Source: an uncultured bacterium
Lineage (GTDB): Bacteria; Patescibacteriota; Dojkabacteria; SC72
Assembly (NCBI GenBank): GCA_938015795.1
Contig: CALLXA010000080.1
Span: forward strand, 1 to 29,008
Direction: 5' to 3'
DNA length: 29,008 nt
The translations under genes were made by a program, and so were the position numbers. The first letter of the stretch is position 1. Each line of letters opens with the position of its first letter. The notes under the pieces are model-generated. The model had not been told where the DNA came from. It was given only the letters and a program-made list of their open reading frames with translations, and searched no databases. Of the stretch, positions 827 to 29,008 are shown piece after piece.

Positions 827-1597
827 ATGGCGGAAATATATACTTCACTATTCAAAGGCAAGGTTCATATAACAACCCCGTATTCCAGTAAGCACCCTGC
901 TTTAGATATGGGGAATTACAAAACAAGAAATCCAATATACTCTCCAAACAAGCTCGGAAAAGGAAAAGTTTCCAAACAAACTACAAGTTATACATACGGA
1001 GGTGTATTATACAAAGATGCATTGACTCAATGGATTAAGTATGACAATGGTTTTGAGTCCTGCACAGTTCACGGTTCGGTTGCTGACAGAATACTAAAAG
1101 TAGGGGATTTGGTAAAAGTAGGACAGCTAGTTTACAGGACTGGAAATAAAGGTTACAGCAAAGGCGACCATCTTCACTACCAATTAAAGAAGAACGGAGT
1201 TCTGGTTGACCCTACAAAATATGTGATGAACGATATGCCCATTGAAGCCCCTACAACCCCTCCTGCACAGACGGAGTGTGAGAAACGAGTGATAGAACTT
1301 GAAGCACAGGTAGCGGGGCTTAAATCAGCTGTAGGGAGTGCAGAAGTGGTAATAAAAACTAGGGACGACTCTATTAGACTTTTAACGGAAAGAAATACCT
1401 ATTTGGAAGAAGTTACAAAAGAAACAAATAGCCAGTTCAAAGGGTTGGAGAAGTTACTAAAAGATATTCAAGACAAATGCGATAAGTTGTCCGAGGACTA
1501 CAAAGCAGTTTCAGAGGAGTTAAAAGAACTTAAAGAGGGCAGAGATACTTGGATTAACAGATTGGCAGATATATTACATAAGTTATTTACTAAATAA
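827..1597 (+). CDS. M23 family peptidase endolysin with C-terminal coiled coil
   Basis: Zn-binding motifs HxxxD (HPALD) and HxH (GYSKGDHLHYQL), GNKG loop, Pro/Thr linker, then about 100 aa heptad-rich tail. Confidence 0.9.
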   Translation: MAEIYTSLFKGKVHITTPYSSKHPALDMGNYKTRNPIYSPNKLGKGKVSKQTTSYTYGGVLYKDALTQWIKYDNGFESCTVHGSVADRILKVGDLVKVGQLVYRTGNKGYSKGDHLHYQLKKNGVLVDPTKYVMNDMPIEAPTTPPAQTECEKRVIELEAQVAGLKSAVGSAEVVIKTRDDSIRLLTERNTYLEEVTKETNSQFKGLEKLLKDIQDKCDKLSEDYKAVSEELKELKEGRDTWINRLADILHKLFTK

Positions 1598-2064: not shown

Positions 2065-2367
2065 GTGTCTTCTACCATCAAAGGTTGGAAACTTGCTATT
2101 CACGAAAGAGAGTGTTACAAGTGCAAAATCTGTGGAAGTAGTTATCAATTAACTGTTCATCACAAAATCCCATTGGCGAGAGGAGGGAAAAGTAATCCAG
2201 ATAATTGTGTTTGTTGGTGTCATATTTGCCATAACTTATTCCACAAAAGATATGGTTTAACCACTTCTGACGATTACGGAAATCCCGTTGGAGAAATAAG
2301 AGATACAAGAGTATCAAAACCATCAAGAAAGAGAAGAAGAAAGTTAAAAAAGAAGCACCATAGATAG
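2065..2367 (+). CDS. HNH endonuclease
   Basis: CxxC...LTVHHKIPLARGGKSNPDNCVCWCHICHNLFH; GTG start with strong SD GGAGGTG; very basic C-tail. Confidence 0.9.
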   Translation: MSSTIKGWKLAIHERECYKCKICGSSYQLTVHHKIPLARGGKSNPDNCVCWCHICHNLFHKRYGLTTSDDYGNPVGEIRDTRVSKPSRKRRRKLKKKHHR

Positions 2368-2372
2368 TAGGT

Positions 2373-2420
2373 AGAGAGGGTATTAAAAATATCTTTGGTA
2401 TAGATACCCTCTCTTTGTCT
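2373..2420 (+). terminator. Probable intrinsic terminator after HNH
   Basis: 11-bp stem AGAGAGGGTAT (2373-2383) / ATACCCTCTCT (2404-2414) followed by TTGTCT; the loop is long (20 nt). Confidence 0.5.
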
Positions 2421-2424
2421 TATA

Positions 2425-2433
2425 TGCTATATT
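2425..2433 (+). promoter_or_regulatory. Extended -10 promoter for the glycosyltransferase operon (possibly leaderless mRNA)
   Basis: TG-c-TATATT ends 5 nt before ATG 2439; no SD and no -20 hexamer before this gene. Confidence 0.4.
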
Positions 2434-2438
2434 GAAGT

Positions 2439-3368
2439 ATGAAAGATTTTGTAATCTATCATAACTACATACCAAAAGTAGGAGGGATAGAATCAGCAGT
2501 CTATAATTTGGCAAGTGGATTGAATAAAAAAGGCTACAATGTAACGATAGTCTATACAAGTGCCGAGAGCTATGAGAGTTTATTCCACTATGCCAAAGTA
2601 GCAGATGTCGTTAGAGTTGATACCAGAGAAATATATTGTGATGTGTGTTTAATAGCAAGTAATCATTTAATCCCTGATAACATAAAGGCAGATAGATACC
2701 TACAATGGGTCCACTCCGATTATGATAAATACAATCTAAAACTAACAAATAAAGGAAAGGTGGAGTATGTCGCAGTTAGTAAACATTGTTCAGAAGTAAT
2801 TAAGAAAAGGGAGAAGATAGAGTGTAAAGTTATTTATAACCTCATAGACCAAGATTTCGGAAATGATAAAAGAAAGATTTTAAGACTTGTTACCAATTCT
2901 AGAGTATCACCAGAGAAGGGATTTGAAAGGGCTTTCAAGTTAGCAAACTCATTAAAGGAAAGTAATATACGATTCTCTTGGGTTATCTATGGCGACAATT
3001 CTCATTATCCAAAAGAATATTGGGGTTGGATAGACAAGTTCAGACCTATTGAAGAAGTCCAATGGGTAGGATACAAAAGTGATGTTTCAATCGGATTAAC
3101 CAATGCTGATTATCTAGTTCAATTATCAGATTTTGAGGGTTGCCCTCTTTCAATCCTAGAAGCATTAAAGATGGAAGTTCCCTGCCTAGTAACAAACTGG
3201 GGTGGAGTAAAGGAACTCATAACAGACGGAGTTAATGGATATATTCTTCCAATGAATATGAAAGATATAGATGTGGACAAAATTGTGGATAAGATACCAA
3301 AGTTTAAGTATAAGCCACTTTCTAATGTGGATAGCTGGATTAAGTTAATAGAAAAGGATAATGGATAA
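2439..3368 (+). CDS. GT-B fold glycosyltransferase (GT4 / Glycos_transf_1-like)
   Basis: N-terminal GGIESAVYNLA motif; SRVSPEKG; C-terminal ADYLVQLSDFEGCPLSILEALKMEVPCLVTNWGGVKELITDGVNGY signature. Confidence 0.9.
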   Translation: MKDFVIYHNYIPKVGGIESAVYNLASGLNKKGYNVTIVYTSAESYESLFHYAKVADVVRVDTREIYCDVCLIASNHLIPDNIKADRYLQWVHSDYDKYNLKLTNKGKVEYVAVSKHCSEVIKKREKIECKVIYNLIDQDFGNDKRKILRLVTNSRVSPEKGFERAFKLANSLKESNIRFSWVIYGDNSHYPKEYWGWIDKFRPIEEVQWVGYKSDVSIGLTNADYLVQLSDFEGCPLSILEALKMEVPCLVTNWGGVKELITDGVNGYILPMNMKDIDVDKIVDKIPKFKYKPLSNVDSWIKLIEKDNG

Positions 3369-4062
3369 TTCAGAAGTAATATTCAAGCCAGTTACACAAA
3401 GGCACGATAGGGTTCTCATAGTTGGTGGAGGAGAAAGTCTAACGGATTTTGATATGGATTTACTAAAAGACTTCAAAGGAGCAATCATTTGTGTAAACAA
3501 TATCGTGTATCATCTTCCAAGAGCAGATTACTGGATAACTGTGGACCCAATGCACAACGGAGAACCACAAGTAGCATTAACAGACAAGGTGAAAGGTGTT
3601 TATTATTTCTGTGCCTTTCCAGACCTGAAAAAAGAGCCATTTGACAGTCCGTATTACAAAGCAGTTGATGATGTTCATTACCTAGAAAGGATAGTTCCTA
3701 TTAACGAAGAAGATGGAGGACAAGGAGATTATAGCTTACAAGAAGACAAGGACAAAATTACAACTGGGGATAGTTGTTATGGAGCATTAGGATTGGCATA
3801 CCATTTTGAAGCAAAAGAAATAATCCTACTCGGAATAGATGTTTACGGGTTCGGTCATTGGTATAACAAATCAGATGCCTACAACCGAGGGTGGGGGAAG
3901 AAGTTTAGAGAATACAAGAGCAAAGTTCCGTTGATATACAAACAGAGTGTTCCTCAATGGAATAAGAGGGGAGCAAAGGTGGTAAATGGTTCTCTTAACA
4001 GCAAGATTACTTGCTTTGAAAGAACCACACCAGAAAAAGCATTTACTTATTTTGACAAATAA
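3361..4062 (+). CDS. Maf/DUF115 (MptE-like) domain protein, putative glycosyltransferase
   Basis: VLIVGGGESL...IICVN...ADYWITVDP...GDSCYGALGLAYHFEAKEIILLGID matches the Maf/CstII-like pattern (xGxGPS...N...A...G...I.L.G.D). Confidence 0.7.
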   Translation: MDNSEVIFKPVTQRHDRVLIVGGGESLTDFDMDLLKDFKGAIICVNNIVYHLPRADYWITVDPMHNGEPQVALTDKVKGVYYFCAFPDLKKEPFDSPYYKAVDDVHYLERIVPINEEDGGQGDYSLQEDKDKITTGDSCYGALGLAYHFEAKEIILLGIDVYGFGHWYNKSDAYNRGWGKKFREYKSKVPLIYKQSVPQWNKRGAKVVNGSLNSKITCFERTTPEKAFTYFDK

Positions 4063-4064
4063 AA

Positions 4065-4229
4065 ATGGTAATAATAAAAACAATAAGAACATATTTTGAT
4101 GTTGTTCTAAACAAATCAATCACATCTGGATTTGTCAATCGTGTTCCACCTGCGAGGGCGAGAAAATTGCTTTCAATGGGGTTAGCAGAGGTGTTGGAAA
4201 TAGATAAGTTAAAAAAAAGAGAACAATGA
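4065..4229 (+). CDS. 54-aa hypothetical protein
   Basis: MVIIKTIRTYFDVVLNKSITSGFVNRVPPARARKLLSMGLAEVLEIDKLKKREQ*; starts 2 nt after the upstream stop; ATGA overlap with the next gene. Confidence 0.65.
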   Translation: MVIIKTIRTYFDVVLNKSITSGFVNRVPPARARKLLSMGLAEVLEIDKLKKREQ

Positions 4230-4888
4230 AGTTTATTAAAAAAGAAACATTTTATCCCTTTCCAGTTCACGAGTGGAATCTTCCTGCGGGACATACTTGC
4301 CCGTTCGCCAAAGATTGTAAAATTATGGTCAATCGCTATAGTGGGAAGTTCAATATCATTGGAGATAAGTTCCGTTGTTATGCAGCAATCTCCGAGAGGT
4401 TTCCTGCCGTAAGAAATATGAGATGGAAGAACTACGAAGAAGTAGTAGAGCTATTAAAGAAGAAAGAGATAATACAAATACCACCACGGGCAACCCATAT
4501 TAGAATACACGGGAGTGGAGATTTTTTCAGTCAAGAATATTTTGATATGTGGTTAGAAGTTTGTAGGAGAAATCCAAAGGTAAAGTTCTGGGCATTTACA
4601 AAAAGTCTTCAATTCTGGATAAACCGACTAGACCAGATACCAGAGAACTTGACACTACAGGCAAGTAAAGGTGGATTTCAAGACAATCTAATTAAGGTGT
4701 ATAATCTAAAGTATGCAGAGGTATTTACTGATATTGGAGAAGCAATCAGGAGTGGACTTCCCATAGATACAGATGATACCTATGCTATGAGTGGGAATCA
4801 GAGTTTTGCTTTGTTGGATAATAACAAATATTCAAAGAAAGTTCCGATTCAAGAGTTAATAGATAATTTTATCAAAACTTCCAAATGA
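4226..4888 (+). CDS. Phage gp88-like (radical-SAM-related) protein
   Basis: WNLPAGHTCPFAKDC...CYA...IRIHGSGDFFSQEY...FWAFTKS pattern typical of the GP88 family; three spaced Cys. Confidence 0.7.
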   Translation: MKFIKKETFYPFPVHEWNLPAGHTCPFAKDCKIMVNRYSGKFNIIGDKFRCYAAISERFPAVRNMRWKNYEEVVELLKKKEIIQIPPRATHIRIHGSGDFFSQEYFDMWLEVCRRNPKVKFWAFTKSLQFWINRLDQIPENLTLQASKGGFQDNLIKVYNLKYAEVFTDIGEAIRSGLPIDTDDTYAMSGNQSFALLDNNKYSKKVPIQELIDNFIKTSK

Positions 4889-5043
4889 AACAGTTGTTAG
4901 CATTTAAGAGAGGGAGTAAGTATTACCTAAAGATATACGGAGCAGAATACGAGTTGGTATTGCCATCAGAAGTGGTAGCAAAACCACTTTCGGAGAACTT
5001 AAAAAAGAAAATAGCAGGGAAGACAGTAACCAAGAAAAAGTAG
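4885..5043 (+). CDS. 52-aa basic hypothetical protein
   Basis: MKQLLAFKRGSKYYLKIYGAEYELVLPSEVVAKPLSENLKKKIAGKTVTKKK*; ATGA coupling; TAATTT 21 nt upstream. Confidence 0.6.
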   Translation: MKQLLAFKRGSKYYLKIYGAEYELVLPSEVVAKPLSENLKKKIAGKTVTKKK

Positions 5044-5096: not shown

Positions 5097-5140
5097 TTAA
5101 TATGGACTATAAAAAGTGAGTGTTCCATATTTTAATGTGT

Positions 5141-5191
5141 GTTCCTGTGGGCTGGTAGGTTTACTCAACTTTCCTACCACCCTACAAGAGC
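5141..5191 (+). promoter_or_regulatory. Imperfect stem-loop in the leader of the replication initiator
   Basis: TGGTAGG (5153-5159) / CCTACCA (5173-5179), extended by GGG/CCC and TGT/ACA; ends just before SD AAAGGAG. Confidence 0.45.
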
Positions 5192-5205
5192 AGAAAGGAG
5201 TTTCA

Positions 5206-6039
5206 ATGGAAGAAATAATCAGCAAACGAGATGGTGATGCCTACGAAGTGATTGGTTACGAACCAGTTATTTTAGAGGAGAAAGAAAAAGAACCAGAAAT
5301 ATACAACCTACAATATCTGGTTTATCGGTTAGATATTCAAAGAGAATACAAGTTAAGTGATTTAGAAACTAAAATTATTAGTTTTATCTTAAGTTACTCA
5401 AATGTTTCGGACAACTTCTACTTCGGGAATAGTAGTTTAGCAAGGATATTTGAAAAGGTAGAACAGAGTATCTGCAATGCCATAACCGCTTTAGAGGAGA
5501 AAGGATTGGTTTCTTGTTCTTACAGAATGAAAGCAAATGGGGGGAAAGTTAGATATATCCGACTATTAGAAAACTCATATTCCAAGTATAAGAAAAGTTA
5601 TAGTCAGAATATAAGAAAAGTTATAAAGAATAATAATAAGATAAATAATAATAAGATAAATATATATATGTCCAATTTTTCTAGTTTCTGGGAACAATAT
5701 CCTAAAAAGGTAAGCAAAAAGAAAACCGAGGAGATATTTAATAGGATAGTAACTTCTAAAAAGAAAGAGCAAGAGATAATACAGGGACTTCTCAAATACA
5801 AGAAGAAGTGGCTAGGAGAAAAGACAGATATAAAATATATTCCAAACCCTACAACTTGGTTAAACCAAGCAAGATGGGAAGACGAAGTAATTATCAGCAA
5901 CGAACAGTTTAACAAGTATGCCAGAGATAGAGAAAAGAAGTGGGAAGAAGTTAAGCAAAAAGAGAAGATAGATTACAAGGTTGATGATGGTAGTGGTGGA
6001 CTCATATCATTAAAAGAGTTATTAAACAAGGAGAAATAG
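5206..6039 (+). CDS. Phage replication initiator (N-terminal winged HTH, C-terminal replisome-organiser-like domain)
   Basis: HTH-like NSSLARIFEKVEQSICNAITALEEKGLV; C-terminal FSSFWEQYPKKVSKKK...YIPNPTTWLNQARWEDE; SD AAAGGAG before ATG 5206; internal iterons. Confidence 0.85.
   Translation: MEEIISKRDGDAYEVIGYEPVILEEKEKEPEIYNLQYLVYRLDIQREYKLSDLETKIISFILSYSNVSDNFYFGNSSLARIFEKVEQSICNAITALEEKGLVSCSYRMKANGGKVRYIRLLENSYSKYKKSYSQNIRKVIKNNNKINNNKINIYMSNFSSFWEQYPKKVSKKKTEEIFNRIVTSKKKEQEIIQGLLKYKKKWLGEKTDIKYIPNPTTWLNQARWEDEVIISNEQFNKYARDREKKWEEVKQKEKIDYKVDDGSGGLISLKELLNKEK
5564..5670. repeat. Putative replication origin: three 16-nt iterons at 23-nt period plus AT-rich tandem repeat
   Basis: TATTAGAAAACTCATA (5564), TATAAGAAAAGTTATA (5587), TATAAGAAAAGTTATA (5610); then AATAATAATAAGATA twice (5629-5658) and a TA run. 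Confidence 0.75.
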
Positions 6040-6043
6040 ATAT

Positions 6044-6072
6044 TAGATATTTAATATATAATACTATATAAT
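6044..6072 (+). promoter_or_regulatory. Possible sigma70-like promoter
   Basis: TAGATA (6044-6049), 17 nt, TATAAT (6067-6072) in an AT-rich intergenic gap. Confidence 0.45.
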
Positions 6073-6103
6073 TAAGAATTAAGTTAAGTTGAGGGTAAAT
6101 AAG

Positions 6104-6319
6104 ATGAGATACACAGTAACAGTTGAAAAGGAAGCCAAGATAAGTTCTGGCACTTCTTTAGCAATCCAGAAGTTCAAGGATATGCTCAAGTCAGAAAGGA
6201 AGACAGAACAGTTACAAGGGGAGTTGGAAATGTGGTTAAAAGAGATTCCAAAAGACGAGTTCAATGCCTATGTGGAAATAACAGAAGAAATGAGAAACAG
6301 AATAGAGCAGGGTAAGTAA
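6104..6319 (+). CDS. Hypothetical protein
   Basis: Open frame with typical composition; ATG 6104 has TAAGTT 19 nt upstream and GAGGG. Confidence 0.75.
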   Translation: MRYTVTVEKEAKISSGTSLAIQKFKDMLKSERKTEQLQGELEMWLKEIPKDEFNAYVEITEEMRNRIEQGK

Positions 6320-13053: not shown

Positions 13054-13785
13054 ATGAAATGGCACACGGAAGTTCGTAAAGTATCAGACCTGAAGAACTG
13101 GGAAGACAACCCAAGAACCATATCCAACGAGGCATACAAAGAGCTGAAGAAGTCAATCAACGACCTCGGTAATTTTGAGCCATTGGTAATTAACACAGAC
13201 GGAACTGTATTAGCAGGTAACCAGAGGCTTAAAATCCACGCAGAAAGAGGCGACACCGAGGTAGAAGTAAGTGTTCCCGAAAGAGAATTGACACCAGAAG
13301 AAGTTAAGAAGATAGGGATAATCAGTAACAGGCACTCTGGAGAGTGGGATATGGACAAACTAGCCAACGAGTTTGAAGAAGTCCTAGACGAGCTAGGCTT
13401 TGACGAGCTTCTTCTTCCAGAGGATACCAAGATAGACAACCTCTATACAAGAGAGGTAAAGACTCCAATATACGACACGGAGAACACAAGACCACCACTA
13501 GAAGAACTTGTGGATAAGTCAAAAGTTATAGAGCTAAATAACTTGATAAATAGTTCCAATATTCCAGAAGAAGTAAAAGATTTTCTGAAGATAGCGAGTT
13601 CCAGATTCTACACTTTCAATTTCAGCAAGATAGCCGACTACTATGCCAATTCAGACGAAGAAGTCCAAGACATTATGGAGAAATTAGTCCTAGTCATCAT
13701 AGACTACAACAAAGCCATAGAGGGGGGTTTTTTTGATTTTGTAACTAAAGTAATAGAAGAACAGGAAGAAGAATATGGAGAATAG
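13054..13785 (+). CDS. ParB/Srx N-terminal domain protein fused to an acidic helical C-terminal domain
   Basis: WEDNPRTI...LKKSINDLGNFEPLVINTDGTVLAGNQRLK; C-terminal FLKIASSRFYTFNFSKIADYYA...LVIIDYNKAIEGGF. Confidence 0.85.
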   Translation: MKWHTEVRKVSDLKNWEDNPRTISNEAYKELKKSINDLGNFEPLVINTDGTVLAGNQRLKIHAERGDTEVEVSVPERELTPEEVKKIGIISNRHSGEWDMDKLANEFEEVLDELGFDELLLPEDTKIDNLYTREVKTPIYDTENTRPPLEELVDKSKVIELNNLINSSNIPEEVKDFLKIASSRFYTFNFSKIADYYANSDEEVQDIMEKLVLVIIDYNKAIEGGFFDFVTKVIEEQEEEYGE

Positions 13786-14635
13786 AAACTCTGCAGTATT
13801 TATTCTAACAAACGGAAGACCAGATAGGGTTTACACAATACAGACTCTACTTAATCAGGGCTATACAGGAAAGTATTATCTCATAATAGACAACCTAGAC
13901 AAAACAGCCGACAGATACAAAGAACTCTATGGAGATAAAGTAGTAGTTTTTGACAAGGAAGACATAGCAAGGAGATATGATACGGGCGATAACTTCAATG
14001 ATATGAGGGCAATTTTCTATGCTCGTAATGCTAGTTTTGAAATTGCCAAGAAACTCGGAATAGAATATTTTATTCAGCTAGATGACGATTATCTGGACTT
14101 CTCATTTAGGTTTAATAGCAAGAAACAGTTTCAGCACCATACGATTAAGAACCTAGACCGAGTGTTTGAGTATATGTTTCAGCTCTACGATACAAGTGGG
14201 GCATTAACAATCGCTATGGCTCAAGGTGGAGATTACGTAGGAGGTGGAGATGGCTTTGGAAAGGACATAAGAATTAAAAGAAAGGCAATGAATAGTTTCT
14301 TCTGTTCTACTAAAAGACCTTTCCAATTCTACGGAAGAATAAACGAAGATGTTAATACCTACACTTTATTAGGACTAAAAGGAGAATTGATATTCACTCC
14401 AAACATAGTAGCATTAAACCAAGTAACTACACAGGCAAATCCCGGAGGTATGGCAGAAATGTATTTAGACAACGGAACTTTCCTAAAATCTTTCTATAGC
14501 GTAATGTATGCACCGTCTTGTGTTAAAATATCACAGATGGGAAACAAGTATAAAAGAATCCATCATAAAGTCCTGTGGAATAATTGCACACCAAAAATAA
14601 TAAGTTGTGAAAAAAAGAAAAATGGTTTATCTTAA
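13775..14635 (+). CDS. GT-A fold glycosyltransferase, TAGT/GREB1-like
   Basis: VFILTNGRP...YYLIID...YARNASFEIAKKLGIEYFIQLDDDY (DxD)...GRINEDVNTY. Confidence 0.75.
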   Translation: MENRNSAVFILTNGRPDRVYTIQTLLNQGYTGKYYLIIDNLDKTADRYKELYGDKVVVFDKEDIARRYDTGDNFNDMRAIFYARNASFEIAKKLGIEYFIQLDDDYLDFSFRFNSKKQFQHHTIKNLDRVFEYMFQLYDTSGALTIAMAQGGDYVGGGDGFGKDIRIKRKAMNSFFCSTKRPFQFYGRINEDVNTYTLLGLKGELIFTPNIVALNQVTTQANPGGMAEMYLDNGTFLKSFYSVMYAPSCVKISQMGNKYKRIHHKVLWNNCTPKIISCEKKKNGLS

Positions 14636-19436: not shown

Positions 19437-20273
19437 ATGGCAAAACAAGATGCATTAAGTATCTTTTTATCCGACGGAAGCACAGAGGAGAAGTTAATGG
19501 AGTCATACGCAGAAGTAGTTGATATGATTCAGAAGACAGCAGTCTCCTCTCAAATCAAGAATGTAAATCTTTCTGGCGACCCAGAGAGCGGTTCTGTTGA
19601 GGTAAGAAGATTGATGACTTCTGCAAGTCAAGCATATGGAACAGCAAGAAGTGCAGGTGGGGACAAAATCTCCAATAACGGTGTTACAATTAACCTTGAC
19701 CAAGACAAAGAAATCGTAGAAGAAGTAGAGTGGAAAGATGTCCAGTTATTTGGAATATCAGATATTCTAGCAAAGAGAATGACCAATCACGAGATGGCAA
19801 TGGTCAGAGAACTAGACACAGCTTTCTTCGCAGAAGCGGAGTCTGCAGGTTCAGAAGAAACAATTACAAGCTCAACCATAGAAGACCAGATTGAGGAGTT
19901 GATACAATCAGTAGAAACAACTTCAAATAATAATGTTGATGGTGTAGATAGAGATATGCTTGTATTAGTAGTTAAACCTGCTATTTACGGACAATTAAGG
20001 AACTATATAGATTCACTTCCAAATCCTTTAGGTGGTGGAGTTGATGCAAAGAAGTTCCACGATGTTAGAATATTCTCTAACACAAGACAGACCAAAGATG
20101 CTATTTGTATGGCAGTTGGTTCAATAGCACAACCTGTTGTTGCTCAACCATACGAAGTAAGCAGAATCCCATTATCCAATGCAGTAGCAATAGAACTTTA
20201 CTACTCATACGGAACACAGGCAGTAATGTCTGATTTGATTAAGTGGGCTACTTTAAGTGCGGTAAGTGCTTAA
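19437..20273 (+). CDS. Major capsid protein
   Basis: 278 aa after the scaffold; TINLDQDKE, LVLVVKPAIYGQL, ELYYSYGTQAV resemble the HK97 fold; ends SAVSA. Confidence 0.85.
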   Translation: MAKQDALSIFLSDGSTEEKLMESYAEVVDMIQKTAVSSQIKNVNLSGDPESGSVEVRRLMTSASQAYGTARSAGGDKISNNGVTINLDQDKEIVEEVEWKDVQLFGISDILAKRMTNHEMAMVRELDTAFFAEAESAGSEETITSSTIEDQIEELIQSVETTSNNNVDGVDRDMLVLVVKPAIYGQLRNYIDSLPNPLGGGVDAKKFHDVRIFSNTRQTKDAICMAVGSIAQPVVAQPYEVSRIPLSNAVAIELYYSYGTQAVMSDLIKWATLSAVSA

Positions 20274-20307: not shown

Positions 20308-20772
20308 ATGGAAGATATAATTGAGAGGATAAAAGCATATGTGCTAGTTATCAATCCAAGTCTAACAGATGATGAGTTATTGAACTTTGTAATCGCAGAG
20401 GTAGTAGATAGAGCATTGGCATACACAAACCGAAAACAGTTAGTCGCAGGATATGAGAGATTTTTAGAGGGCGATTACTATGTAGGTGAATACTATGTAG
20501 ATGTAACAGGAACATATCAGCCAATATTACCAATACCACTAGAAATAGAACGGGCATTGGCAAGGGTTATTGTTTTGAGTTACAAGACTGTAAAGGACAA
20601 TGTAGCTAGTGATACTCCTGCTATCAAATCATTACAGGACAATGGTCAATCTGTAAGCTATGGTGATAATGTAGCCAGTTATTTAGCTTCAAAAGAAGAT
20701 TCGGATATATTCTCCTCTGTGAAAGGATTGCTAGATAAGTTTAGAATCCCTACGATAGTTGAAAATACCTAG
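20308..20772 (+). CDS. Head-tail adaptor (gp6/gp15-like)
   Basis: Position after MCP; IKSLQDNGQSVSY...LLDKFR pattern. Confidence 0.75.
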   Translation: MEDIIERIKAYVLVINPSLTDDELLNFVIAEVVDRALAYTNRKQLVAGYERFLEGDYYVGEYYVDVTGTYQPILPIPLEIERALARVIVLSYKTVKDNVASDTPAIKSLQDNGQSVSYGDNVASYLASKEDSDIFSSVKGLLDKFRIPTIVENT

Positions 20773-21121
20773 TAGTTTCAAAACCAAAATAGAAGAAACT
20801 TTTTACGACAAGCTCTTTAATATTTACAATAAAGAACAAACTGTTGATGATGAGGGGTGGGCTAAAGACAAATCAACCACGAAGAAGTCTTCCGTCTATG
20901 GCAATGTAAGGTTTAATAACCTAGCAGAGCTACAAGAAGAATACGGAATCGAGGAAGAAATAGACATAGCCATTACAACTAGCAGTTCGGTTGAATTAGG
21001 AGATATACTGGAATACGAGGGAAATGAATACCGAGTAATCGGCTCTATTCCCTACGATTCCCATAATTTAATATTCGCAAAGAAATGGTTATCACAGTCC
21101 TCAACCTTGACAAGTGTATAA
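20759..21121 (+). CDS. Head closure/stopper protein (gp16-like)
   Basis: Beta-rich 120 aa; ELGDILEYEGNEYRVI; neck synteny. Confidence 0.7.
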   Translation: MKIPSSFKTKIEETFYDKLFNIYNKEQTVDDEGWAKDKSTTKKSSVYGNVRFNNLAELQEEYGIEEEIDIAITTSSSVELGDILEYEGNEYRVIGSIPYDSHNLIFAKKWLSQSSTLTSV

Positions 21122-21850: not shown

Positions 21851-22282
21851 ATGAGTGCTACAAAGAGTTTAGGCACAACTCTAACAAAGACCAAGAGTGG
21901 AAGTGAGCAGACAGATTTGGTTATTGCTGACTTAACCTCTATCGGAGAAGTTGGTGTTGAGTCTGATGAAATTGATGTAACTACTTTAGATACCACAGGT
22001 GGCTATAAAGAGTTCATTGGTGGATTCAAAGATGCGGGAGAAATGTCCCTAGCAGGAATCATTAAAACTGAAACTGCTATGGAGGCAATGATTGCTCTAG
22101 CAGAATCACAAGAAGTAGAGGAGTGGACTGTAGAAAGTTCAAATGGTTCTACTTGGGTATTTGACGGGTTCGTCAAGTCTTTCAAGGAATCAGAAGCTAC
22201 TGTTGATGGAGTAAGAGGGTTTACTGGAAGTATCAGAATATCTGGTGCTCCTGTATATACTGGTGCGGAAGCAAGTGCATAA
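21851..22282 (+). CDS. Major tail (tube) protein
   Basis: EIDVTTLD...KEFIGGFKDAGEMSL...WVFDGFV...FTGSIRISGAP; ends AEASA. Confidence 0.9.
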   Translation: MSATKSLGTTLTKTKSGSEQTDLVIADLTSIGEVGVESDEIDVTTLDTTGGYKEFIGGFKDAGEMSLAGIIKTETAMEAMIALAESQEVEEWTVESSNGSTWVFDGFVKSFKESEATVDGVRGFTGSIRISGAPVYTGAEASA

Positions 22283-25266: not shown

Positions 25267-25647
25267 ATGGCAATATCTTATTTGTGTAAAATAGAGGGAA
25301 CAGATTTAACCCCATATCTAAAGACCTATGATGTTTCCTACGAGGAGATGTGGAGCGAAGCGAATAGAAATATGTCGGGTATGTTGAAAGCAAGTTACAT
25401 AGCTACTACTCCAAAGATATTCCTAGAGTTTAGACAAATGACCAAGGCAGAAATCTCAACTATTATGGGACTATTAGATAATCATAGTTTTACAGTCGCT
25501 TGGTATGATGAAACAGACGATACCTACAAACAAGACGAGTTCTATCGTGGAGAATTAAAGGTTGGTATTCGTGATTTGGATAGTGAGATGTATAAAGAAC
25601 TTTCTGTCAATCTAATAAGTTTTGGAACATTGGAGGCAAGTGCTTAA
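25267..25647 (+). CDS. Distal tail protein (Dit-like)
   Basis: Follows TMP; NRNMSGMLKA...FTVAWYD...FYRG; ends LEASA. Confidence 0.75.
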   Translation: MAISYLCKIEGTDLTPYLKTYDVSYEEMWSEANRNMSGMLKASYIATTPKIFLEFRQMTKAEISTIMGLLDNHSFTVAWYDETDDTYKQDEFYRGELKVGIRDLDSEMYKELSVNLISFGTLEASA

Positions 25648-27871: not shown

Positions 27872-29008
27872 ATGTCATTAAGTGGAACAATAAGTGGTAG
27901 TTTTACAGGGGTAAGCACTAGTAATGCTAGACCTAAAATAAACTGGACAGCGACACAAAACATAGCAGGTAACTACTCTGATATTACAGCAACCCTAGTT
28001 TATTACAGATACGGAAGTTATTATGCCTACAATGGTTCTCACTCTGTTAGTTTGTCTATCAATGCGAATAACAATACTGGAAACTATGCATTTGATTTAA
28101 GAGGCACAGCACCTCTATCCGATACAATACGAAGTAGGACAGTCCGAGTTTACCATAATGCAGACGGAACAAAGTCCTGCAATATATCTTTCTCTTGTGA
28201 TACAGATACAAGTTTTGGCACAGGTAGTGCAAGTGCGACAGTTACATTAGACACCATACCTCGTGCAGCTACAATAACAAGCACCCTAGCCCATACCATA
28301 GGAGGCAACCTTGCCTATACATTAACCAATCTAGGGAGTTTCTATGTAAAATTAGTCCTACTCGTTTGGAACGGAACAGAATATGTAGAAGTCATTAGTT
28401 CAGAAAGAGGGACAGGGACAAGTGGTGAAATAGAGCTAGGAGCTACGGAAAACAATATTATGTATGAAGCAATGCCAAATGTAACGAGCAGAGCAGGAAT
28501 ATTAAGAGCCTATACCTATTCGGATAGTGGATATACAACTCAAGTAGGAAGTTACCAAGACAAAGCAGGAACGATATCAATAAATCAAGCTACTAACAAG
28601 CCTACATTTACTACATTTACAGTTGGAAACCTAGACAAGACAATAGCAAATACCGATAAGTATTCAAATGTTCTAGTAAGCAGTTCAACTTCAACCCTAC
28701 TAGGTGCAGATACTAAAATGATTAAGGGATATTCAAAGTTAAGAGCTGTCATTACAAGTGCAAACAAAATGGTGGCTCTCAATTATGCGACATCAGTTAA
28801 GTATAGGTTCATAGTAGGAAGTGCATACAAGGAAGAAAACTATTCGGCAGATTCTACTGTCAATCTAGATGTGGACAATGCCACTACGAATTCGGTATCA
28901 GTAACAGCATACGATTCCAGAAGTCTAACAACCCTAGTCGCAGATGCTAGTTCCATCACAAACAATGCGAACTATGTTCCTGTATCGCTTTGGGGATTAA
29001 CATTAACC
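27872..29008 (+). CDS. Siphovirus DUF859-like tail/baseplate protein (3'-truncated)
   Basis: Open 379 codons to the window end: NWTATQNIAGNYSDIT...VYHNADGTKS...VTLDTIPRA; absent from the track because it has no stop. Confidence 0.8.
   Translation, partial: MSLSGTISGSFTGVSTSNARPKINWTATQNIAGNYSDITATLVYYRYGSYYAYNGSHSVSLSINANNNTGNYAFDLRGTAPLSDTIRSRTVRVYHNADGTKSCNISFSCDTDTSFGTGSASATVTLDTIPRAATITSTLAHTIGGNLAYTLTNLGSFYVKLVLLVWNGTEYVEVISSERGTGTSGEIELGATENNIMYEAMPNVTSRAGILRAYTYSDSGYTTQVGSYQDKAGTISINQATNKPTFTTFTVGNLDKTIANTDKYSNVLVSSSTSTLLGADTKMIKGYSKLRAVITSANKMVALNYATSVKYRFIVGSAYKEENYSADSTVNLDVDNATTNSVSVTAYDSRSLTTLVADASSITNNANYVPVSLWGLTLT

Follow-up and report, generated by a model that had tools for sequence, protein, structure and literature searches.

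Phage particles whose proteins are O-glycosylated are known from the mycobacteriophage Che8 and its relatives (Freeman et al., 2023, as summarised in PMC12619734). We analyzed a five-gene cassette, positions 2439 to 5043, of a phage-like contig of 29,008 bp (contig C80, CALLXA010000080.1; the whole contig is called the window here), and the data point to a system of this kind. As far as the mycobacteriophage system is described in that summary, the cassette resembles it in that the glycosyltransferases (GTs) are encoded by the phage and the number of GT genes varies from phage to phage. However, the cassette comes from a phage of low guanine-plus-cytosine (GC) content in a sludge metagenome, with a different host group. 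It also differs from the summarised system in its putative tag, a short terminal Ser-Ala or Ser-Val, in a core GT (GT4) with an obligatory-looking small partner (s1) that is sometimes fused to it, and in a cargo slot with genes for Maf-like, methyltransferase, kinase or GP88 proteins. Judged from these features, the cassette appears to be a different, modular variant, with a small adaptor subunit, of the kind of system known from mycobacteriophages.

The GtfA/GtfB and SdgA/SdgB enzymes of Gram-positive serine-rich adhesins are a further comparison. As proposed for the cassette, a GT4-family enzyme of the GT-B fold acts there on Ser of a repetitive or tagged protein, and in GtfA/GtfB-type O-glycosyltransferases an accessory subunit helps acceptor handling. 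However, the window GT4 matched the NCBIfam models of the protein O-glycosyltransferases SdgA, SdgB and GtfA weakly, with 52 bits against cut-offs of 800. In addition, GtfB is a full GT-B-like protein, whereas s1 is a domain of 54 amino acids (aa), and the proposed acceptors of the cassette carry single C-terminal tags.

The cassette consists of five co-directional open reading frames (ORFs):
2439-3368, forward strand: GT4-family GT-B glycosyltransferase of 309 aa, core enzyme of the cassette (PF00534, E 6e-23).
3361-4062, forward strand: Maf/MptE-like transferase (DUF115 superfamily) of 233 aa (PF01973, E 1.8e-6; phrog_2111, E 4e-27).
4065-4229, forward strand: s1, 54 aa, conserved small partner of GT4 (from homolog adjacency, fusions and a predicted complex).
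4226-4888, forward strand: GP88-family protein of 220 aa (PF17338, E 5e-33).
4885-5043, forward strand: s2, 52 aa with a basic C-terminal tail.

Neighbouring ORFs overlap by 8, 4 and 4 nt or are separated by a 2-nt gap, and the GP88 ORF overlaps both of its neighbours by ATGA, so the tight packing described in an initial annotation of this DNA is real. The GT-B, Maf-like and gp88-like domain calls of that annotation were upheld by Pfam and PHROG matches. Neither s1 nor s2 matched a Pfam or PHROG family. No match to the cassette was found among GenBank phages by megablast, and no PADLOC model matched GP88, the Maf-like protein or GT4.

GT4 matched PF00534 (Glycos_transf_1) with 81.6 bits against a cut-off of 26.4 bits, and both glutamates of the E-x7-E motif in its C-terminal domain, E233 and E241, were invariant in 8 homologs. 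The 54-aa s1 was overlooked when the cassette partners were first grouped, and adjacency, fusions and a predicted complex identified it as the real conserved partner of GT4. In every relative whose locus could be read, an s1 homolog lies 3' of GT4 or of its cargo (G003, G007, G009, L088, L090, L349-L353, L356 and L357; phages and loci carry our own identifiers). Adjacent or fused s1 was found in 13 of 26 GT4 loci, and additionally in L088, L090 and G009. Six phages (L358, L361, L366, L368, L373 and L376) have the s1 domain as a C-terminal extension of GT4, and in the L368 fusion GT4 occupies residues 1-301 and s1 residues 311-352. The sequences of s1 vary too much for their alignment to serve in a collection scan. 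The complex of GT4 and s1 was predicted with an ipSAE of 0.71, in comparison with 0.00 for the best of three controls; of solved complexes 58 of 80 attain this mark, of mismatched pairs 2 of 110. The predicted local distance difference test score (pLDDT) of the partner was at least 88, and the runs agreed in at least 94% of contacts. The model thus supports binding of GT4 and s1 to each other. The modelled s1 interface lies on residues 34-62 of GT4, in the N-terminal domain, which in GT-B enzymes usually holds the acceptor. The conserved core of the cassette is GT4 plus s1.

We propose that GT4 is an O-glycosyltransferase for C-terminal tags of virion proteins. The C-termini of the following window proteins were read:
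19437-20273, forward strand: major capsid protein, ending ..LSAVSA, proposed acceptor.
20759-21121, forward strand: 120-aa virion protein, ending ..LTSV.
21851-22282, forward strand: tail tube protein, ending ..GAEASA, proposed acceptor.
25267-25647, forward strand: Dit-like protein, ending ..LEASA, proposed acceptor.

The C-termini of 80 capsid homologs from IMG/VR were then compared. They either stop after a conserved DLIKY block or carry an extension of the Ser-Ala/Ser-Val type. Among the records at least 90% complete, PF00534 GTs were present in 4 of 4 phages with tag-like capsid ends (SASA, FSV, ESA and GTV) and in 0 of 9 without such ends (Fisher p = 1/715, a statistic that treats related phages as independent). 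All four tagged phages carry GTs that are genuinely homologous to the window GT4 (E 1e-119 to 2e-25). The tail tube is also tagged in three of the four, G003, G009 and G010; a tail tube homolog was not found in G007. The tail tube homologs of G003, G009, G010 and L090 end ..ASA, ..PSA, ..ASV and ..VSA. At distant GT4 loci, those of the GT4::s1 fusion phages, the capsids were undetected by the A2 capsid profile, and ends of the ..VSA, ..ISA, ..PSV and ..VSV types lie beside the GT. At the sequence level, GT genes and the shared C-terminal tags of capsid and tail tube therefore co-occur and co-vary. The cassette also frequently adjoins packaging or capsid genes in relatives. Of the two targets named in the initial annotation, tagged virion proteins and a host surface receptor, the former is best supported, from the co-occurrence of GT4 with tags and the distant tagged loci, and nothing points to the latter.

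The gap between GT4 and s1 differed among relatives. It holds a Maf-like gene in the window, L088 and L090; P-loop kinase-like, methyltransferase-like and Maf-like genes in G003, which has an epimerase-like gene upstream (the kinase-like and methyltransferase-like labels were read from N-terminal motifs of the ORFs); and genes for a 143-aa protein and a methyltransferase-like protein, labelled by its S-adenosylmethionine (SAM)-binding motif, in L350 and L351. It is empty in G007, G009, L349 and L356. The gap is a variable cargo slot, and the Maf-like gene, which follows GT4 in L087, L088 and L090 and lies three genes 3' of GT4 in G003, is optional cargo. The five genes had been described as a self-contained operon; the cassette is modular and not a fixed unit, with the Maf-like gene in only some of the relatives and GP88 in none of 26 other GT4 loci.

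The structure of the Maf-like protein was modelled with a pLDDT of 92.5. The top VIA match of the model was the Maf catalytic domain (5mu5; Z 13.5, 192 residues aligned, root-mean-square deviation (rmsd) 3.8), followed by CstII and Cst-I (Z 10.7-10.8) and the archaeal MptE pyrophosphokinase (8sd5; Z 10.6 over 156 residues, Foldseek E 2.5e-5). In comparison with the Maf flagellin glycosyltransferase of 632 aa, the 233-aa window protein is a catalytic core only: it aligns to residues 252-513 and has no flanking N- and C-terminal domains, and there are no flagellar genes in the window. It has a fold like that of the CstII-type sialyltransferases (GT42; Z 10.8), but no CMP-sugar pathway was found in the phage or the genome bin. 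MptE is about as similar to it as CstII, with a LAYHF motif in both proteins. The Maf/CstII-type fold assigned initially was recovered, but on the fold alone a sialyltransferase-type enzyme and an MptE-type kinase look alike. The N-terminal GGGES and the LLGxD core motif resemble GNGPS and LSGID of CstII, in a profile alignment of 16% identity that is too distant to equate the catalytic His or the CMP-phosphate Tyr. No CMP-sugar synthetase (CTP_transf_3) or NeuB was found in the phage window or in the 92%-complete bin, which is a weak guide to the host, and the earlier suggestion of a CMP-nonulosonate donor thus found no support, within the limits of this weak host assignment.

Some homologs of the Maf-like protein carry a precomputed PF01973 call. 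Its distant phage relatives are flanked by GT-like genes (phrog_1962 in 25 loci and phrog_4603 in 14), and FkbM methyltransferases, a GT-D enzyme and sulfotransferases also lie beside them. The neighbours are GTs and methyltransferases, not pterin genes; the context of these relatives is glycan, not pterin. A glycan-building module, as originally suggested, is the best reading of GT4 together with the Maf-like gene. In larger phages (L211-L268), phrog_2111 Maf-like proteins typically lie between a phrog_4603 'sialyltransferase-like' paralog and a phrog_1962 glycosyltransferase. A tblastn search also matched the pmgO/pmgP region of phage P1.

The GP88 protein matched PF17338 with 115.2 bits against a cut-off of 24.4 bits, and 22 of 22 aligned homologs matched this family too. 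No paper on the GP88 or PF17338 family was found in a literature search. The GP88 model had a pLDDT of 90.5, and its top 16 VIA matches were all radical-SAM enzymes, with modest Z scores of 5.1-7.0 that may reflect only a common arrangement; they included QueE (5tgs; Z 7.0, 169 residues aligned, rmsd 4.6), viperin (Z 6.5) and spore photoproduct lyase (Z 6.3). Foldseek found nothing in the PDB at E up to 0.001, and among AFDB clusters only other unnamed GP88 proteins. GP88 has three invariant N-terminal Cys and, judged from these matches, may share a partial TIM-barrel fold with the compact radical-SAM enzyme QueE; its GSGDF strand occupies the position of the radical-SAM GGEP. However, the three Cys (C25, C31 and C51) are spaced CX5CX19C and not CX3CX2C as in the radical-SAM superfamily, and GP88 gave no match to PF04055 (Radical SAM) at E up to 1. 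The relationship of GP88 to radical-SAM proteins that had been noted earlier is supported by its modelled fold, at modest scores.

The genomic contexts of GP88 were also investigated. For the closest homologs (at least 60% identity), GT or sugar genes lie within 0-3 genes of GP88 in 6-7 of 10 contexts, often with overlapping ORFs, and the co-occurrence of GP88 with GTs in other genomes, on which the initial annotation depended, was thus found among the closest relatives. The gene order is GP88-GT2-GT4::s1 in L376, a fusion of the same GT4 family, and GT1-GT2-methyltransferase-GP88-GT2-GT4 in L389. Genes for UDP-glucose dehydrogenase, SAM synthetase, an epimerase and methyltransferases lie upstream of GP88 in L375, a GT-B gene adjoins GP88 in L004 and L008, and FkbM and GT2 genes lie 3.5 kb from GP88 on contig P0024. 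No GT or sugar genes were seen in the GP88 contexts of L377, L003 and L005. In a more distant set of 80 IMG/VR loci (50-66% identity), a GT was found within 4 kb in about 20 loci, a count that was not dereplicated, and none of the 80 had a homolog of the window GT4, Maf-like gene or s1; a ParB_N homolog lies nearby in 37 of these loci, and terminase, DUF5681, a C5 methylase and TAGT were other neighbours there. An interim view from these distant loci, that GP88 is unrelated to GTs, was revised after the GT and sugar contexts of the closest homologs had been seen. GP88 homologs in bacterial genomes lie in mobile elements (integrase, primase, DUF3631) without informative partners, and the close GP88 relatives found in a metagenome scan lie on contigs of 1-4 kb only.

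Other GP88 loci were recorded in passing. A GP88 homolog of 57% identity lies between PglZ and BrxL in a BREX operon (L006:3438-8749, and L007), and the exact protein occurs in 9 contigs. In L004:4977-12193, a GT1 gene, GP88 and a 247-aa gene stand before a complete 7-deazaguanine set (PTPS, radical SAM, GTP cyclohydrolase I, methyltransferase and QueC), and ParB and terminase genes come after this set. In L389:9787-12639, 3' of the GT cluster with GP88, a canonical Radical_SAM gene is followed by ParB_N, Gly_transf_sug and TAGT genes; this makes two different modification clusters in one phage.

From the gene order, domains, folds, co-occurrence counts, GT4::s1 fusions and complex prediction given above, we infer an acceptor, a sugar donor, an order of steps and a chemistry for GP88. 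GT4 would work as a complex with s1, which would dock on the acceptor-side N-domain of GT4. The complex would O-glycosylate short C-terminal Ser-Ala/Ser-Val tails of the capsid protein, the tail tube protein, the Dit-like protein and one further virion protein, with a host nucleotide sugar as the presumed donor. The cargo slot would supply different tailoring genes in each phage, and the Maf-like transferase of the window would probably add or modify a second residue. GP88, translationally coupled between s1 and s2, may be a radical-SAM-like Fe-S enzyme and probably an optional one, tailoring either the sugar itself or its nucleotide-sugar precursor, and of all the steps this one is the least secure. 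We consider it slightly better than an even chance that the cassette is such a modular virion-protein glycosylation system, with a GT4-s1 core, C-terminal tags, a cargo slot and tailoring by GP88. A more general proposal is put forward with low confidence: a two-component, tag-directed O-glycosyltransferase, made of GT4 and an adaptor of about 50 residues, separate or fused, may occur across environmental siphophages, with a plug-in slot that includes GP88 as a non-canonical radical-SAM sugar enzyme.

Several observations weigh against the virion-glycosylation scheme. The tag definition was set post hoc, after the data had been seen; capsid ends of the ..ISA/..VTA type occur without a GT in two incomplete records, G011 (88%) and G027 (72%); and the GT-tag counts are not fully independent, because several of the tagged phages are relatives. 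The Maf-like protein scored 28.3 bits with PF01973, below the cut-off of 34.6 bits, and has an LAYHFxAKK motif in common with MptE, a pyrophosphokinase, so that its activity may be that of a kinase and not of a glycosyltransferase. GP88 was found in 0 of the 26 other GT4 loci, 0 of 58 Maf-like loci and 0 of 4 complete tagged phages, and complete phages with GP88 have no tagged proteins. Most GP88 relatives at 50-56% identity adjoin ParB, terminase or C5 methylase genes, and some lie inside BREX or beside ThyX and DNA polymerase. GP88 looks inserted in the window, because s1 and s2 are adjacent in G007. There, 10 nt separate the s1 homolog from the s2 homolog that follows it (L206:9703-9837, E 2.6e-7), and GP88 is missing between the two. 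This order in G007 and the absence of GP88 from the 26 other GT4 loci are what a mosaic would give, in which GT4, the Maf-like protein and s1 glycosylate the virion and GP88, with s2, is an unrelated passenger acting on DNA or nucleotides in an accessory-gene hot spot. The mosaic also agrees with the lack of GP88 in all 36 capsid-homolog records, with the 37 of 84 GP88 loci that have a ParB_N homolog no more than 6 kb away, in many cases immediately 3' of GP88, with terminase, C5 DNA methylase and TAGT as other frequent neighbours, and with the positions of GP88 between PglZ and BrxL in the BREX operon, between ThyX and DNA polymerase in phage S-EIVl, and beside the 7-deazaguanine cluster. We nevertheless hold it to be rather unlikely as a whole: 6-7 of the 10 closest contexts have GT or sugar genes within 0-3 genes, one of them with a GT4::s1 fusion of the same family, and the window GP88 overlaps both of its neighbours by ATGA. 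For GP88 itself, the role of an optional SAM-dependent tailoring enzyme of glycan clusters is our tentative choice, and the reading of it as a passenger gene with a DNA or nucleotide substrate comes close behind.

The target of the whole cassette might also be something other than virion proteins. Serotype conversion by GTs of temperate phages is known (mentioned in PMC12619734), and the cassette could in the same way remodel a host surface glycan or receptor and so block superinfection. We regard this as very improbable, since GT4 tracks virion tags and not lysogeny and the cassette often adjoins packaging or capsid genes. No integrase was seen among the scanned window ORFs of at least 180 aa, and no long hydrophobic stretch in the GT4, Maf-like and GP88 translations as read by eye without a predictor. 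Modification of the phage DNA, by base glycosylation or another hypermodification, is improbable, if less so. Glycosylation of DNA by phage enzymes of the GT-B and GT-A types is established (T4 glucosyltransferases; Pyle et al., 2024, as cited in PMC12619734), and the neighbours of GP88 include ParB, TAGT, C5 methylase and 7-deazaguanine genes. However, GT4 co-varies with protein C-terminal tags, the weak family matches of GT4 include protein O-glycosyltransferases, and no base hydroxymethylase or TET was present among the window ORFs scanned. A better candidate for DNA modification is the ParB and GT-A gene pair of the window (13054-14635), and GP88 was near none of 80 such loci.

This ParB_N-like gene and its GT-A neighbour are nearly always found as a pair. 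In 79 of 80 IMG/VR loci the ParB homolog lies immediately 5' of the GT-A homolog, mostly with overlapping ORFs. The GT-A protein matched phrog_842, annotated 'beta-glucosyl-HMC-alpha-glucosyltransferase' (E 1e-72), and the ParB part also matched a PADLOC type II methyltransferase model (E 1.9e-15). We take the two genes for a candidate DNA-modification system that is distinct from the cassette. A partnership of GP88 with them was ruled out, since none of these 80 loci carries it.

The signals and genes around the cassette were as follows:
827-1597, forward strand: M23 peptidase, upstream flank of the cassette.
2065-2367, forward strand: small HNH endonuclease gene, directly preceding GT4.
2373-2414, forward strand: hairpin (12-bp stem) with a T-rich run on its 3' side, likely the intrinsic terminator of the HNH gene.
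2425-2433, forward strand: extended -10-like element TGCTATATT, read directly, a candidate promoter 5 nt before the GT4 ATG.
5116-6039, forward strand: replication initiator, downstream flank of the cassette.

The cassette does sit between lysis and replication genes, with the M23 peptidase and HNH genes upstream and the replication initiator downstream. The terminator placed before it is supported by the T-rich run and by the fold of the hairpin (dG -23.2 kcal/mol, z -3.0; 0 of 200 shuffles folded equally well). For the promoter assigned to the cassette, the extended -10 element TGCTATATT is present, but it has no -35 and was not listed by the promoter scan; a transcript from it would be leaderless, if the element is used. 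The description of the operon as self-contained holds at the 5' end but not at the 3' end, where no convincing terminator was found after 5043 (fold z -1.2). A small HNH gene lies immediately 5' of GT4 in three phages (window 2065-2367, G003 5837-6286 and G007 28240-28485), which suggests that the cassette travels with, or adjoins, a homing-type gene. A strong hairpin, GGAAGACGG...CCGTCTTCC, was seen at 1983-2017, between a small gene at 1704-1964 and the HNH gene, and the 106-nt stretch 1960-2065 folds with z -2.3.

All genes of the window are on the forward strand. The DNA came from a bioreactor-sludge metagenome, and the window is one contig of a genome bin of 0.75 Mb. It is a compositional outlier in this bin (GC 0.363 versus 0.317; tetranucleotide correlation 0.79 versus a median of 0.98), so the bin is a weak guide to the phage host and the host assignment is doubtful. 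Bases 1-55 of the window are identical to the end of contig C84 (1.1 kb, same bin), which abuts the left end of the window and codes for the C-terminal end of a tail-fibre-like protein; the genome of the phage thus extends into C84.

Experimental evidence for virion glycosylation has so far come mainly from mycobacteriophages, in which the modification protects the particles against antibodies. If the scheme proposed here is true, a second, unrelated modular system with a short, portable tag and a small adaptor would show that phages widely coat their particles with sugars, and it would provide a compact pair of tag and enzyme for glyco-engineering of phages or proteins. The GT-cluster contexts are a testable lead for GP88, a widespread phage protein family, and a plug-in role, if true, would for the first time place the uncharacterised PF17338 family in a functional context.

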